A stretch of 64,000 nt of DNA, from positions 1 to 64,000 of IMG/VR virus record IMGVR_UViG_3300017914_000750; one strand, written 5' to 3'. Origin of the DNA: a virus (taxonomy: Duplodnaviria > Caudoviricetes). The position numbers and the translations under genes were made by a program. The notes under the pieces are model-generated. The model saw nothing but the letters and a program-made list of their open reading frames with translations. It had not been told where the DNA came from and made no database searches. This document shows positions 58,071 to 64,000 of the stretch, piece by piece (position 1 is the stretch's first letter; each line of letters opens with the position of its first letter).

Positions 58071-58763
58071 CTACTTGACTATGTCGTAATCTTCATTCAA
58101 TGGGAAGTGATTCCAGTCGGGGTCTATATCCATTGCATGGTCATTACTCATGTTTAATTTATGAGAAACAACATTAAAGGATATAGAATATCTATCTTTT
58201 TCTGTTCTATTTGGTTCAACCATATGCATCATAGCACTTGGAAACAATATTAAAGACCCTGTTGTAGGTCTTATTCTATATGTATCCATTTGTCTTACAT
58301 TATTTGGAAAGTCTGATACTACTTTTGGGTCTTTATCGAGTGCAACAAAGTCTCCTTCATCGCCGTCTCCTTTAATATAAAAAGCACCACTATACCAACA
58401 ACCATTATGTAAATGGGGTTTATTCCATGCACCATTATCATTTATATTTGCCCATGAGTTACCTATATCTATTTGAATTTTACCTGTATTGATAGCATGA
58501 AATCCACAAATTTCGTTGTTGTAAATATCTTTTAATACTCTCATTATTTTTGTAAATGCTGGGTGTCTATCACAACCGTCATTTGATTGCCAACCACTAT
58601 ATGCATTTGATATGTTTCTACCAACTGGGTCTTTCTTTCTCATACCGTCTACAGCTTCTCTCAACATATCACAATAATCTTCTGTAATCCTACCACTCTC
58701 AATAAGATTTTCTTCGTATACTATCGTTGGAAATAGTAATCTAATTCCCTTTTTCATCGTCAC
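58071..58763 (-). CDS. Putative 2OG-Fe(II) oxygenase (TIGR02466-like)
   Basis: GWQS, SWANIN, HLH, SG.FY, FPS...HMV.PN, R.SISFN. Confidence 0.85.
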   Translation of the reverse strand: MTMKKGIRLLFPTIVYEENLIESGRITEDYCDMLREAVDGMRKKDPVGRNISNAYSGWQSNDGCDRHPAFTKIMRVLKDIYNNEICGFHAINTGKIQIDIGNSWANINDNGAWNKPHLHNGCWYSGAFYIKGDGDEGDFVALDKDPKVVSDFPNNVRQMDTYRIRPTTGSLILFPSAMMHMVEPNRTEKDRYSISFNVVSHKLNMSNDHAMDIDPDWNHFPLNEDYDIVK

Positions 58764-59676
58764 CGTCCCAATTTAATTCTGTTCTTTTCTTTTGTTCAAC
58801 TTTAAAATCAAACTCCATTTGTTCTTCTTTCTTATGCATAGGACACTCAGGTGGTGGAGTATCTTCTGAGAATAATTTTGCCTTATTAGTTTTTATCTTG
58901 GCATTTCTATAACCACCAATGTTTAATTTTTCTGAAGCTTTCCTCTGTATATATTCACCTGTTGCTGGGTCTATTTTCATATGTCCACCTTCCATTTGCC
59001 ATTTTTGCATTGACCTATCATGTATACCATGTGTTTGATACCATTCATTTGATTCTGCATAGGTATAAGTTGCATGATATTCTTCTCTTTTATATGGGAC
59101 AAATTGACATATAGGTTGTCCAGCTGGTATAATGAAAGAATGATTAACTTTAGGATAAAATATAATTTGTGCATTATCCATATTCATATTAAAGTTATCC
59201 GTATCAATGATACCTTGCCATACTGCAAAATATTGATTTTGAAATAAAAAAGGGTCTATAAAGAATGTGGAATACCCTTCGGGTGTTGTAATGTTCCACC
59301 TTTGACTTATTTTAAATGCGTCTTTGACTGGACAATCTTCACCCATGTATTCAAATATATCTTCAAATTGTGAAGACCCATGTGAAGGTGAACGGATAGG
59401 ACTATTAGGAGAGGTTACGAATATTTCATTTTCTTCGGGAAAATTCCAATCATGACCATTCATAACTGGTATATCTTGAGTTGCAATTATATACCAACCT
59501 AGTTTTAAATAATCGTCCATGGCTGGACATGACCTTAGAGTTTGAACTATTTGACCCCTATGGTGAACTTTTACTTTTGCTTTCTTCCACCATTCGGGGT
59601 GATAGTTCTTTGCAAGAACTGGTCTAAAGTTCTCAAAAGCACTTCCATCGAATGTTCTAAAATCAATTGTAGGCAT
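58741..59676 (-). CDS. Hypothetical protein (DUF6065-like)
   Basis: PEWWK, CPAM.D, W.I.TPEGYS, GIIDTD, G.PICQF.P; family commonly found beside oxygenases. Confidence 0.65.
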   Translation of the reverse strand: MPTIDFRTFDGSAFENFRPVLAKNYHPEWWKKAKVKVHHRGQIVQTLRSCPAMDDYLKLGWYIIATQDIPVMNGHDWNFPEENEIFVTSPNSPIRSPSHGSSQFEDIFEYMGEDCPVKDAFKISQRWNITTPEGYSTFFIDPFLFQNQYFAVWQGIIDTDNFNMNMDNAQIIFYPKVNHSFIIPAGQPICQFVPYKREEYHATYTYAESNEWYQTHGIHDRSMQKWQMEGGHMKIDPATGEYIQRKASEKLNIGGYRNAKIKTNKAKLFSEDTPPPECPMHKKEEQMEFDFKVEQKKRTELNWDGDDEKGN

Positions 59677-60376
59677 ATCTATCCTGTTTATCTAGTAGTC
59701 TAACTTCGTCTCCTCTCAAGACTATAGACCTTCTATCTATGTAGTTTGCATTTGAAGAAGGTGCTTCTGCACCATGTGGTATTCTACCGTCAAACATTAA
59801 TAATCTATTCGGTTTAAATGCAACTCTTCCTATTTCAAACTCATTCATGTGGTCTTCTGTTCCAGTCTCTACATGTTGACTATAAAATCTTAAATCTCCA
59901 CCCCAGTTATCATTCCAAAATGTATTTGTATAATATAGAAAAGATAAATTAAAATCATCATCAAGACTACAATCAGCATGACAGCTTCCATTTTGACCCA
60001 TAGTTTGAGAGTTGGTTCCCATATATTGAAATCGTATCCAATCAAAAGAGAAATCAGTTCTTATTTTCTTATCTATGTAATCCATAAAATATGGATAGTA
60101 AAAGTTTGATTTACATTTTACTTTTTGTCCGTTGTTTGCTCTAAAATATGAAGCACCCCATAATTCATGACTAGGTAATCCACCTCTTTTTCTATTATCT
60201 ACAGTTTGAACACAATTGTTCTTTTGCCAATTTGTTTGATTTCTTAGAAAGGAGTCTGTATGGTGGTGTAATTCAGCTGACAAATAATTGTCAAAGATAT
60301 AAACTTTATTTCCTAGTGGGAGTTCTTCAATATAGAACGGTGAATCACATTCTATTACTTCAATAGAATTAACCAT
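59663..60376 (-). CDS. 2OG-Fe(II) oxygenase
   Basis: HAD, LYY...W...WGG, PNRL..FDG.IPH, R.SIV. Confidence 0.85.
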   Translation of the reverse strand: MVNSIEVIECDSPFYIEELPLGNKVYIFDNYLSAELHHHTDSFLRNQTNWQKNNCVQTVDNRKRGGLPSHELWGASYFRANNGQKVKCKSNFYYPYFMDYIDKKIRTDFSFDWIRFQYMGTNSQTMGQNGSCHADCSLDDDFNLSFLYYTNTFWNDNWGGDLRFYSQHVETGTEDHMNEFEIGRVAFKPNRLLMFDGRIPHGAEAPSSNANYIDRRSIVLRGDEVRLLDKQDRYAYN

Positions 60377-60920
60377 CTTGTATGACTGAAGAAGGTGGAA
60401 GAGTCATTATATAATCTTCTAAATCTCTTAGAGTGTCTTCTCTAGTTACAGATATGTCTCTGTAAATACCGTCTGCAACTGTATATGTTGCATCTGCAAA
60501 CTCTAAGACCCTTCTTGCTTCAGACCTGTATGGGTGTGCTGAACCTTCTCTACCAGCATATATAGCGTCAAGAAAATTTTCAAATCCATATGCTTCACAT
60601 TGAACTTCTATATTTCTTTTTACTGCGTCATGAACTCTATCAATGAATTGATTATTAAGAGTTACACCATGAGGTGGTTCTGAATTTTCAATGTATCTCT
60701 CAATTGCATCTCTATCTGTTTCTGATAAAGGTTGAGTGTCTTGTTCATCAAAAGGTTTGTCTTTATCCCATTCTAAAATTTTTACTTCGATTTGGTCATA
60801 TACCAACACATCAAAGTCAAACCCTAAGTCTGGCTTATCAACATTTTCAAATCTATATTCTAATCCGTTTGGTTTTCTTACTAATAAATTTCCAAACTCA
60901 CAATATACTAATGCATTCAT
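60369..60920 (-). CDS. Hypothetical protein resembling tail-fibre assembly helpers
   Basis: C-terminal AYGFENF..A..A....YRSEA pattern; weak. Confidence 0.5.
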   Translation of the reverse strand: MNALVYCEFGNLLVRKPNGLEYRFENVDKPDLGFDFDVLVYDQIEVKILEWDKDKPFDEQDTQPLSETDRDAIERYIENSEPPHGVTLNNQFIDRVHDAVKRNIEVQCEAYGFENFLDAIYAGREGSAHPYRSEARRVLEFADATYTVADGIYRDISVTREDTLRDLEDYIMTLPPSSVIQDG

Positions 60921-60940
60921 AATATCTCCATTCTAACATA

Positions 60941-62479
60941 TTAGTTGTTTTTTGGCAACCCGTTTTTTACTCTATCGTAGTAACCTAACATATTTATGTT
61001 ACTCGTATCCATGCCTTTAATCCAAGGGCCACCTCTTGTATAATGGATTGCATGTTCTGTTTTTTGAAATTTTGTATCGAATCCTTCTGTTGCAATTTTA
61101 CCATGTGGTATTTTACTTACTTTATCAGTCCATTGAAACTGATGTAGATATTGTCCACTTGCAGTATTAATTAATTCGGGTGTTAGTTTCCTACAATCTT
61201 CATGACCATTATTAAAAATCATCATACTAGACCATAATTTTTTAGGATATGATACATTCTTTTCTCCACCCATTTTAACTTCGTCATGGTGTTCAAAATC
61301 ATATTGAACACATGCTACTGCATTGTCGGGGTCTAAGAAATAGAATAAAGGTAAGGGAGACCTTTGCCATATGTAATCGTTATCAATGAAGAAACTAAAT
61401 CCTTCATAGTTTTCTAAATATGGAATTAAGAATCTACTGTAAGTAAATTCAGTAGACTGTTGTGCATACTCTCTATTATACACTGGAATTTTAGAATAGT
61501 CAAGGCGTTTGACTTCTATTTTATAATCTTCAAAGAACTCTTCTCCTACACCTTTACATTTTGACTTTTCTATGCTATCATGTATTGACTTTTCTGCAAC
61601 TTCATGTATAATATCGTCATGACTTGAATCATAACCAATATAGATATTGATTGGTTTTTTCTTTGTTAGTTTATGCACCTTTCTATTAAAAGCATGAACT
61701 TGTTTTCTAAAGTCTGTTCCCCCATGGTCTATTGGAACATTGATTTCTATTTTTCCTTGGTCTGTCCATATACCACTTATATTTTTTCTTCCCTTTGGAA
61801 CTAATGAAGTCCAAAAATCTAAAAGGTTATCTACATTTAGACTTGGGTGGTTTGAAAAACAGTTTGAATAGTCTGTAACTAAACAAGTCATATCGGGTTC
61901 GTCCATTGCTTGGAATGATTGACACCTCATAGAGCCTGGGTGTATATTAAGTTTACCGTTTTTAGTGTGTCCTTGGATAGGTTGCCAGAGACCTTCTTTT
62001 TGAATATTGTTTATTAACCAGTGTGCTTTTGCAGCGTGATAATAAACTGCAGCCACTTGATTTTCTTGAACTGGGTCTTCGTCTTGACCAGTTATTTGTT
62101 CATAGACACCGTCTTCAATCATATAGTCCATTGAACCACCACCAATAGGGTGATTTTCTCTTAAATCTGCAGTCCAACCTTTATGAACAAAAGTAAAGTA
62201 ATTTAATGAAGGATTTATTAAACCACCCCATTCTTGTAGGTCTCCTTCGTTCATTAATTTTTTGATATGTTTCCATGTAACTAATCTAATAGGTGGTAAT
62301 GTATCCAAAATATGTTGCCATATTTCTTTTCTGTCTTCGATAGGTTTATGAGCTCTTTCACCTTCTGCCCATAATTGGGGAAGAATAAATTGTTCTTTAG
62401 GACGAGTTTCATATGTGAAACTATCGTTAAATAGTTCTTTTGCTCGTTCAAGGGTTTTGATTTCTTCAAATCTGTCCAT
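60941..62479 (-). CDS. Glycosyltransferase (GT-A, GT8-like) fused to an unknown N-terminal domain
   Basis: IYIGYD, STEFTYSRFLIP, DND, WSSMMIFN, HYTRGGPW. Confidence 0.82.
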   Translation of the reverse strand: MDRFEEIKTLERAKELFNDSFTYETRPKEQFILPQLWAEGERAHKPIEDRKEIWQHILDTLPPIRLVTWKHIKKLMNEGDLQEWGGLINPSLNYFTFVHKGWTADLRENHPIGGGSMDYMIEDGVYEQITGQDEDPVQENQVAAVYYHAAKAHWLINNIQKEGLWQPIQGHTKNGKLNIHPGSMRCQSFQAMDEPDMTCLVTDYSNCFSNHPSLNVDNLLDFWTSLVPKGRKNISGIWTDQGKIEINVPIDHGGTDFRKQVHAFNRKVHKLTKKKPINIYIGYDSSHDDIIHEVAEKSIHDSIEKSKCKGVGEEFFEDYKIEVKRLDYSKIPVYNREYAQQSTEFTYSRFLIPYLENYEGFSFFIDNDYIWQRSPLPLFYFLDPDNAVACVQYDFEHHDEVKMGGEKNVSYPKKLWSSMMIFNNGHEDCRKLTPELINTASGQYLHQFQWTDKVSKIPHGKIATEGFDTKFQKTEHAIHYTRGGPWIKGMDTSNINMLGYYDRVKNGLPKNN

Positions 62480-62505
62480 AATATAAAGTATTTAGTTGTT
62501 AAAAA

Positions 62506-63312
62506 TTAACTACCAATCGGAGTTGCAGGCCACTGTTGGTTTACATCTCCATCCCATCTTGCTTCAGGTGTTCTACCCTGTCTTGCATATGTAAATGGTG
62601 ACCTATGGTCGTATGTAAATGGATTTTGACCAGTTCTCTGATAAGTTGAAGGTGACCTATAATCATATGTAAACGGTGTTTGACCCGTTCTCTGATATGT
62701 TGAAGGAGACCTATAATCATATGTGAAAGGTGTCTGACCAGTTCTTTGATAAGTCGAAGGCGACTGATAATCGTAAGTAAATGGTGTTTGACCAGTTCTT
62801 TGATATGTTGAAGGAGACCTATGGTCATATGTAAATGGAACCTGTTGGTCTCTTATATTTGGTTGTTGTGCTGACCTAATGTTAGGTTCTTGAGCATTTG
62901 CAATATAAGGACTAGGTTGTTGTATTGACCTAATATTAGGTTCCTGTGCATTCACTGGATTTCTATAGGTGAATGGTGACCTATGAGAGTAAGTATTAGG
63001 TTGTCTCGCAGGTGCTTGATATGTAAATGGTGACCTATAGTTATAAGTAAACGGGTTCCTTGCTGGTGCTTGATATGTGAAAGGAGACCTGTAATGATAT
63101 GTAAACGGGTTCCTTGCTGGTGCTTGATATGTAAACGGTGACCTATAGTGATAAGTAAACGGGTTCCTTGCTGGTGCCTGATATGTAAATGGCACCCTAT
63201 GATGATAAGTAAATGGGTTCCTAGCATCGTTCTCATATATGAAAGGTTGCCTAAAAGAAAAGGGAACTGGCTGTCTAGCAGAAGAAATAAATGGTGATTG
63301 ATATGTTGGCAT
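62506..63312 (-). CDS. Pro/Tyr/Thr/Gln-rich tandem-repeat protein
   Basis: PFTY repeats; no Lys, Leu or Cys; GAGGAG RBS. Confidence 0.85.
   Translation of the reverse strand: MPTYQSPFISSARQPVPFSFRQPFIYENDARNPFTYHHRVPFTYQAPARNPFTYHYRSPFTYQAPARNPFTYHYRSPFTYQAPARNPFTYNYRSPFTYQAPARQPNTYSHRSPFTYRNPVNAQEPNIRSIQQPSPYIANAQEPNIRSAQQPNIRDQQVPFTYDHRSPSTYQRTGQTPFTYDYQSPSTYQRTGQTPFTYDYRSPSTYQRTGQTPFTYDYRSPSTYQRTGQNPFTYDHRSPFTYARQGRTPEARWDGDVNQQWPATPIGS
62623..62838 (-). repeat. 4 x 54-nt coding tandem repeat (PFTYDxRSPSTYQRTGQT)
   Basis: Visible in the translation; copies differ mostly at synonymous sites. Confidence 0.9.
63001..63216 (-). repeat. 4 x 54-nt coding tandem repeat (PFTYHYRSPFTYQAPARN)
   Basis: Visible in the translation; copies differ mostly at synonymous sites. 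Confidence 0.9.
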
Positions 63313-63326
63313 TCTCCTCTATCCTC

Positions 63327-64000
63327 CTACTTCTGTTGTCTGTTATGAGCAAGTATATCATGTGCAAAATAGTTTTGATTTCCACTTACTTTTGTTAAAT
63401 GGTATACTTTATGTAGACCTTCTAGTTTTTCTATACAGTCGACTGCATGTTTAGGTGTGTTTTGTAAAATACATGATATTGTATCAATGATTTTATCACC
63501 TTCTTCAACTACACCTGAGATTTCTCCACCCCATGCTGTTCCTTCTGCAACTTCTTGTTCCCAATCTTCCATGCTTATAACACACCAACCTTTTCCGTCA
63601 ACTTTGATTGGGTGTCCACCTGTTAGTTTTACACCTCTACCACCGAAAGATATTTCGTATAATTCACATTCTCTTGGAACCATTAGTTCTTCTACTTCAC
63701 CTACCATGATTGTTAAATTCTCATCTGCAGTCATAACCATATCACCAACTTCAACTTTTTGAATTGGCATATATGAACCGTCTTCCATCCAAATCATAGT
63801 ATCTTCTGCGAAGCAACCACCACCTCGACCACCGCCTGGGAAGAAGACTGGTTGTCTTGCTTGGAAGGTGAATGGGTTTTGGAATGCACCAGTATTCGGT
63901 TGCTGAAGGTTTGCAATATAGGTAAATGGTTGCTGAGCACTTCTAATATTCGGTTGTTGAATATTCGCAGGATATGTAAATGGTTGTCTTGCACTTCTAA
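63327..64000 (-). CDS. Repeat protein with a C-terminal Hint (intein-like) domain; 5' end lies outside the window
   Basis: Frame is open to the window end: ...QQPNIRSAQQPFTYIAN...PGGGRGGG-CFAEDT...LTGGHP...NYFAHDILAHN-RQQK; Cys1 codon at 63813-63815. Confidence 0.88.
   Translation of the reverse strand, partial: RSARQPFTYPANIQQPNIRSAQQPFTYIANLQQPNTGAFQNPFTFQARQPVFFPGGGRGGGCFAEDTMIWMEDGSYMPIQKVEVGDMVMTADENLTIMVGEVEELMVPRECELYEISFGGRGVKLTGGHPIKVDGKGWCVISMEDWEQEVAEGTAWGGEISGVVEEGDKIIDTISCILQNTPKHAVDCIEKLEGLHKVYHLTKVSGNQNYFAHDILAHNRQQK

Follow-up and report, generated by a model that had tools for sequence, protein, structure and literature searches.

A type-A BIL-like Hint domain at the C-terminus of a phage fibre-module repeat protein, with occupied, empty, and decayed alleles at one locus

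What does a Hint domain do at the end of a phage repeat protein, where it is followed by only four residues and has no Cys, Ser, or Thr at the +1 position? The window analysed here is the first 64,000 bases (1-64000) of an uncultured virus record that is 93,736 bp long, and the gene in question lies on the minus strand of the window. The open frame (63327..63998, minus strand) leaves the window at its end. A first-pass annotation of the window had proposed retrieval of the full gene upstream, and this gave an open reading frame at genome positions 63327-64739 (minus strand) that encodes 470 residues. The protein is composed of, in order, a conserved N-terminal unit of ~50 residues, ~250 residues of repeats, a Gly linker, the Hint domain, and a tail of four residues. 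The repeats are 18-residue units rich in Gln, Pro, Tyr, and Asn, which in the DNA are 54-nt tandem repeats. The motifs picked out by the first-pass annotation (GGGRGGG-C1FAEDT, TGGHP, a terminal HN, and RQQK followed by the stop codon) are all present on the minus strand, and its description of an intact Hint domain that has neither a +1 nucleophile nor an endonuclease was borne out: the domain has 158 residues, the +1 residue is Arg, and a homing endonuclease insert between Cys1 and Asn is absent, the 158 residues forming one compact fold. No second Hint domain was found elsewhere in the 93.7-kb record. The coordinates are collected in Table 1.

Table 1 Features of the Hint gene and its downstream neighbour, in window coordinates
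Feature	Position	Strand	Basis
3' part of the 470-aa gene	63327..64000	-	Translation; rest of gene past the window end
End of repeat region (N-extein) within the window	63837..64000	-	Translation, tandem repeats, AlphaFold pLDDT 31-45
Gly linker GGGRGGG, residues -7 to -1 ahead of Hint	63816..63836	-	Sequence
Hint / type-A BIL domain (assigned from sequence and predicted fold), Cys309 to Asn466, 158 aa	63342..63815	-	Pfam, PDB sequence match, AlphaFold, Foldseek
Cys309 (Cys1), presumed N-S acyl shift nucleophile; FAEDT next	63813..63815	-	Conserved wherever the N-junction is covered
Block B T-G-G-H-P, Thr373 to Pro377	63609..63623	-	His and Pro invariant in alignment A1
His465-Asn466, block G, presumed Asn cyclisation site	63342..63347	-	Invariant in alignment A1 and in 30/30 sequences
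RQQK, four-residue C-extein with conserved Lys	63330..63341	-	Homologous to xQQK end of Hint-less orthologues
TAG stop; next gene starts 14 nt downstream	63327..63329	-	Sequence
Downstream 268-aa repeat protein (rep268), always adjoining the Hint gene	62506..63312	-	Translation, synteny

To which family does the domain belong? Its resemblance to Hint domains is far beyond chance. Five Pfam models match it (Vint, Hint, Hom_end_hint, Hint_2, and Intein_splicing), of which Vint alone lies just above its cut-off, and an NCBIfam scan gave intein matches at sub-threshold level only. The top PDB sequence match is the Clostridium thermocellum BIL domain 2LWY. An AlphaFold model built with an alignment of 18 relatives had a pLDDT of 93.1 and a pTM of 0.87, and the top Foldseek match of this model was BIL2 of Tetrahymena BUBL1 (6TMM/6Y75; E 4e-10, TM 0.78-0.82), followed by 2LWY (E 9e-9) and then by the RecA, DnaB, and gp41-1 mini-inteins and Hedgehog 1AT0 (to E 1e-6). 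In the AlphaFold model of the full-length protein the repeats (pLDDT 31-45) have neither a stable structure nor a beta-grasp, and the Hint domain is the sole part that is confidently folded.

Type-A BILs are known from Amitai 2003, from Dassa 2004, and from the C. thermocellum BIL domain 2LWY, as summarised in PMC4031507 and PMC7765530. The domain described here shares with them the HINT fold, Cys1, TxxH, and the C-terminal His-Asn that separates type A from type B, the lack of a +1 nucleophile and of an endonuclease, and a hypervariable, non-conserved host region; both the repeat number and the C-terminus of the host protein differ among syntenic orthologues. By every feature that can be tested in the sequence and the predicted fold, it is a type-A BIL HINT domain, and on the same grounds we predict that it is very probably active and removes itself from the protein. 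It differs from the known type-A BILs in that its host is a repeat protein of a phage fibre module rather than a bacterial secreted protein, in that its C-extein is short in most members (4-13 residues) and always contains Lys, and in that Hint-less alleles exist at the same locus.

An exhaustive profile-free search returned 779 relatives of the Hint domain. Many of these are tandem Hint arrays joined through HN/K(G)(G)/CF (a slash marks a domain boundary here and below), and many others lie at the extreme C-terminus of their proteins. The metagenomic proteins P0007, P0008, P0010, and P0017 are arrays of as many as nine Hint domains in tandem, with HN/K(G)(G)/CF as the sole linkers. In P0076, a protein of the foraminifer Nonionella stella (EukProt), ubiquitin-like units that start with MQIFVKT are flanked by BIL domains, and from its sequence the ciliate-type BUBL arrangement seems to occur in Rhizaria too.

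No PHROGs family was found for the 470-residue protein, and tblastn detected no homologue of it in 50,697 phage records, so no cultured phage can be named as a model. When the Hint domain alone was searched against the same records by tblastn, an unrelated Vibrio phage intein was the sole match. In the literature searched, we found no phage fibre-module protein described as having a BIL or Hint domain.

The large terminase of the record is 55% identical to that of 'Phage C48C1' and ~45% identical to those of T4-like cyanophages, and a VrlC-like structural protein is 35% identical to that of Methylophilales phage Melnitz. Because of these matches we take the source to be an uncultured marine T4-like myovirus. 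Upstream of the Hint gene are fibre-like genes with PHROG 'structural protein' and 'tail fiber' matches, and downstream are a second repeat protein, a large GT512 protein of no named family, and 2OG-Fe(II) oxygenases. A scan of IMG/VR for related loci found 196 stretches, from which 80 loci were kept and compared. All 80 loci have the gene order fib538, fib274, p136, fib277, fib576, [Hint gene], rep268, GT512, p183, oxygenase, and since this order is the same throughout, the gene copies at the 80 loci are orthologues.

The ten-gene block (window 58071-64000; L009:1-16001) that keeps its order in 80/80 loci contains four fibre-like genes and two repeat proteins together with a 512-residue protein (PHROG 28018), a 183-residue protein, and a 2OG-Fe(II) oxygenase. 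A third repeat protein of 543 residues with PFTY / PYIAN repeats and no Hint domain is encoded 7 kb upstream in the same fibre module (L009:11412-13043, minus strand, which is genome 71411-73042). The rep268 orthologues have in common the conserved end QQWP(A/G)(T/S)P(I/V)(S/T)S. Both adjoining repeat proteins are nearly free of Lys, its frequency past residue 60 being 0.0007 in the Hint-gene family, and the N-terminal 50 residues of that family have three invariant Lys residues, K9, K23, and K38.

At these 80 loci the same gene is found with and without the domain. An HN-type Hint is present in 25 loci, one locus has a decayed copy (L057), and 54 have none. The Hint-less orthologues in the clade of the window finish with ...PGGGSPG-HQQK before the stop codon, whereas Hint-bearing genes end in ...PGGGSPG-FGGG[Hint]LQKR or, in the window, ...PGGG-RGGG[Hint]RQQK. 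The correspondence extends to the codons. At the empty site of L038 the sequence reads ..cca ggc ggt ggt agc cca ggc / cat caa cag aaa taa, at the occupied site of L011 it reads ..cca ggc ggt ggt tca cca ggc ttc ggt ggt ggt [Hint] tta cag aag aga taa, and in the window, also occupied, it reads ..cca ggc ggt ggt cga ggt ggt ggt [Hint] aga caa cag aag tag. In a second such pair, L015 ends in ..YFYGGGG[Hint]ISTK and its Hint-less sisters in ..YFYGGGGGGGGFFPQQLK and ..NPLTK. Other short, Gly-rich ends of Hint-less orthologues are ...LPGGGSPGHQQK, ...SGGGNPQIK, ...PTPGQQQK, ...FYGGGGGGGGFFPQQLK, and ...GGEEP, each followed by the stop codon. Removal of the Hint domain in silico leaves an end that resembles the C-terminus of the Hint-less proteins. 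Because the Hint-less orthologues end in poly-Gly plus xQQK at the same locus, the Hint domain is an insertion in the Gly-rich C-terminus of its host, four residues ahead of the end.

The poly-Gly run and the RQQK tail had been viewed as devices that belong to the Hint domain, a view that the like ends of Hint-less orthologues contradict. Judged from the aligned ends, the poly-Gly run and the Lys-ended tail belong to the C-terminus of the host protein itself, although the tail may be either purely native or partly borne by the cassette. The Hint-less sister lineages might be derivatives of precise deletion that retained a cassette-borne tail. P0044, which reads HN/IPMQQK-GEEP, looks from its sequence as if the Lys segment arrived with the Hint domain ahead of the native GEEP end.

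In other orthologues the Gly-rich tail is replaced by a non-repeat C-terminal domain of 130-170 residues that ends in ...TIALF, ...SLTLY, or ...RIDVTK (L044:10001-11362, L054:10001-11815, L064:4547-6703, L075:10001-11470, L085:3649-5196, and L089:5535-7166, all on the plus strand). On the evidence of these sequences and by analogy with receptor-binding fibres, the C-terminus of the Hint-gene protein is a site at which ends are swapped. A globular tip is accepted in the family, and the Hint domain might likewise be retained unprocessed, as a binding domain or distal tip of the mature protein, but we consider this highly improbable, since the catalytic residues are strictly kept although identity over the remainder of the domain has fallen to about 30-40%, and a binding domain needs no Cys1, TxxH, or HN.

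How long has the Hint domain been in this gene? Its presence mapped on the tree of the adjacent gene, GT512, requires at least six changes, at least four of them on well-supported branches. The Hint tree mostly mirrors the GT512 clades and, since these are separated by ~1.4 changes per site, the Hint domain has long been resident. The sole supported conflict concerns L048, whose Hint domain groups with that of L015 (support 100/97) and whose GT512 groups with L074/L053; this placement suggests that a Hint-bearing gene end was exchanged between lineages. The G+C content of the Hint DNA (0.362) matches that of the window (0.361), and therefore there is no sign of a recent foreign origin. The trees and the genome-like composition together thus indicate that the Hint domain is an old resident that has repeatedly been lost, gained, or exchanged, in the manner of an intein but free of an endonuclease.

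Conservation at the junctions was scored in 30 distinct Hint-bearing members of the family of the 470-residue protein. Cys1, T/SxxH-P, HN, a Gly at -1, and a Lys in the tail are each kept in 30/30 sequences. The +1 residue (Arg467 in the window) is G, M, F, I, L, A, R, or Y in the family, and Cys, Ser, or Thr in none. Tails are 4-13 residues long in most members, and the Lys is as a rule one of the last three residues, at +3 to +6. A tail Lys occurs in 12/12 deep lineages, which at the Lys frequency of the Hint domain (0.042; that of the repeats is 0.0007) has a chance of ~1e-7. Lys is likewise the last residue in Hint-less sisters of the Hint-bearing clades (HQQK, QQQK, PQIK, PLTK, and QQLK), and more distant Hint-less clades have ends in ..EP or ..R. 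The tail could have been conserved because the Hint chemistry requires it, and not because the mature protein does. A reading of GGGRGGG as an RGG or arginine-methylation motif was rejected as a conserved feature, as orthologues lack the Arg.

Elsewhere in the superfamily, terminal Hint domains for which N-cleavage alone is needed are often without HN (TN/ER, NN/E.., and HS/EI). In the Hint-gene family HN has been lost in one copy, that of L057 (L057:10001-11263, plus strand), and the Lys tail has been lost there too: this decayed Hint keeps Cys1 and T-E-D-H-P but ends in LVDS/VIDRGNN, with no HN, no Lys tail, and no preceding poly-Gly. It may be a natural N-cleavage-only state or a dead one. 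Because the HN and the Lys tail are kept intact beside an old Hint domain, the C-junction and the tail appear to be in use. This argues against the 'non-splicing' label given in the first-pass annotation, as does the finding that splicing is possible in type-A BILs with His-Asn even where a +1 nucleophile is lacking, by thioester formation, Asn cyclisation, and attack by an amine of the C-flank (PMC4031507). In tested type-A BILs the cleavage products outweigh the spliced products (PMC4031507), and a contrary review states that type-A BILs cannot ligate (PMC7765530).

From the predicted fold, motifs, insertion polymorphism, tail homology, and conservation described above we infer the following chemical steps and product. 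Cys309 would attack the carbonyl of Gly308 in an N-S acyl shift aided by Thr373 and His376 to give a glycyl thioester, and Asn466, aided by His465, would cyclise and so cut the Hint domain from the RQQK tail. The thioester would be captured by the tail, through its released alpha-amine (the proposal made for type-A BILs) or through the epsilon-amine of its conserved Lys470 (as in BUBL BIL2). The Hint domain would then depart and leave a mature protein that again ends in ...GGG-RQQK, in the way that Hint-less orthologues do. As a side reaction one would expect the thioester to be hydrolysed, which gives cleavage without ligation, and this route could even predominate. Our best reading, to which as a whole we give an even chance on sequence, model, and analogy, is that a type-A BIL excises itself and that the tail is probably re-joined. 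For the re-joining of RQQK to the protein, taken by itself, we see the case as evenly balanced. A point against it is that a free peptide of four residues would diffuse off after Asn cyclisation unless ligation precedes it.

The structural match nearest to this domain bears on the choice of amine. In PMC8616854, BUBL BIL2 is described as forming, without ATP, an isopeptide between a Lys epsilon-amine and the C-terminal Gly of the N-extein, with other proteins also modified. As in BUBL1 BIL2 (6TMM/6Y75; Dassa 2004 Trends Genet; Chiarini 2021, cited in PMC8616854), the phage protein has Gly as the last residue of its N-extein, lacks a +1 nucleophile, and has a Lys downstream. In contrast, the N-extein consists of unstructured repeats rather than a ubiquitin-like beta-grasp, the C-extein is a tetrapeptide rather than a folded domain, sequence identity is ~23%, and the comparative data lend no support to transfer to other proteins. 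Capture of the thioester by the protein's own tail Lys, which would give an isopeptide-branched C-terminus, is in our judgement rather unlikely.

The alternative that survives best is cleavage alone, in which the Hint domain would be a self-removing C-terminal cap: the Gly308-Cys309 thioester would be hydrolysed, the mature protein would end in ...GGG-COOH, and the Hint domain and tail would be discarded. Some phage fibres carry self-cleaving C-terminal chaperone domains, and by analogy with these the Hint domain may first aid folding, solubility, or assembly. Cleavage alone would be in keeping with the predominance of cleavage in tested type-A BILs (PMC4031507; PMC7765530), with the position of the Hint domain as the sole confidently folded part of a low-confidence AlphaFold model, and with L057, where the retention of Cys1 and TxxH without HN argues that this gene can tolerate a state of N-cleavage alone. 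However, N-cleavage needs neither the HN nor the Lys tail, both of which are invariant (30/30) despite deep divergence, terminal Hint domains elsewhere drop HN, and the tail tracks the ends of the Hint-less sisters (RQQK versus HQQK/QQQK and ISTK versus PLTK). We therefore regard cleavage alone as possible but doubtful.

The first-pass annotation favoured a different fate, release of the repeat protein as a glycyl thioester like that of activated ubiquitin, possibly followed by ligation to another molecule. In such a scheme the thioester would be transferred, independently of ATP, to a Lys of another virion protein, to a host-surface molecule, or to a small molecule. The chemistry has a precedent in amine capture by BUBL BIL2, the closest solved structure, which joins its N-extein to Lys of other proteins (PMC8616854); the -1 residue is Gly without exception (30/30), and the gene lies within a virion fibre module. 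The likeness to ubiquitin does not extend further, as the AlphaFold model gives the N-extein no ubiquitin-like fold. Moreover, Hint-less orthologues in the same neighbourhood share the poly-Gly, Lys-ended C-terminus, which indicates that poly-Gly is not an activation device, and the conserved HN and tail would be left unexplained. Nor is there an evident acceptor. The adjacent repeat protein, which had been suggested for this role, has no Lys in the translation from the window and 0-3 Lys in its orthologues, with no Hint-linked difference; the repeats of the Hint protein are themselves Lys-free; and a search for genes that co-occur with the Hint domain, covering 10 kb to each side, found none (largest difference 0.19). 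The Arg of GGGRGGG, too, varies in the family. External conjugation is thus improbable in our view, and we think it equally improbable that the thioester is caught by a Lys of another virion or host-surface protein to form a covalent fibre cross-link.

The domain can also be set beside the wider Hint families. It resembles the class-1 mini-inteins (Mtu RecA, Ssp DnaB, and gp41-1) in fold, in blocks A, B, F, and G, and in having empty and occupied alleles with a patchy spread, but unlike canonical inteins it has no Cys, Ser, or Thr at +1 with which to form the branched intermediate and sits in a low-complexity tail rather than in a conserved functional site. With Hedgehog/Hog proteins it shares a Gly-Cys-Phe N-junction and, by analogy, thioester chemistry and release of the N-terminal part; unlike Hog, it is followed by RQQK only, without a sterol-recognition region, and it has the HN that Hog lacks. 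The PT-HINT domains of polymorphic toxins (PMC3482391) are similar in being releasing peptidases of filamentous proteins, whereas here four residues and no toxin domain follow the Hint domain and there is no PF07591 match.

Work on BIL domains has dealt with a few bacterial proteins and a single ciliate locus. The IMG/VR series presents one orthologous phage gene with, without, or with a decayed Hint domain in an otherwise identical neighbourhood. With a C-extein of four residues, this natural series makes directly testable whether type-A BILs splice, cleave, or ligate to Lys. It also indicates that poly-Gly before Cys1 and a very short Lys tail can be present without being special devices of a Hint domain. 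Lys-directed ligation, if true, would add a new post-translational chemistry to those of phage virions and would provide a compact natural ligation tag and, were the ligation intermolecular, the Hint domain would be an enzyme-free, ATP-free ligase as in the ciliate BUBL loci.
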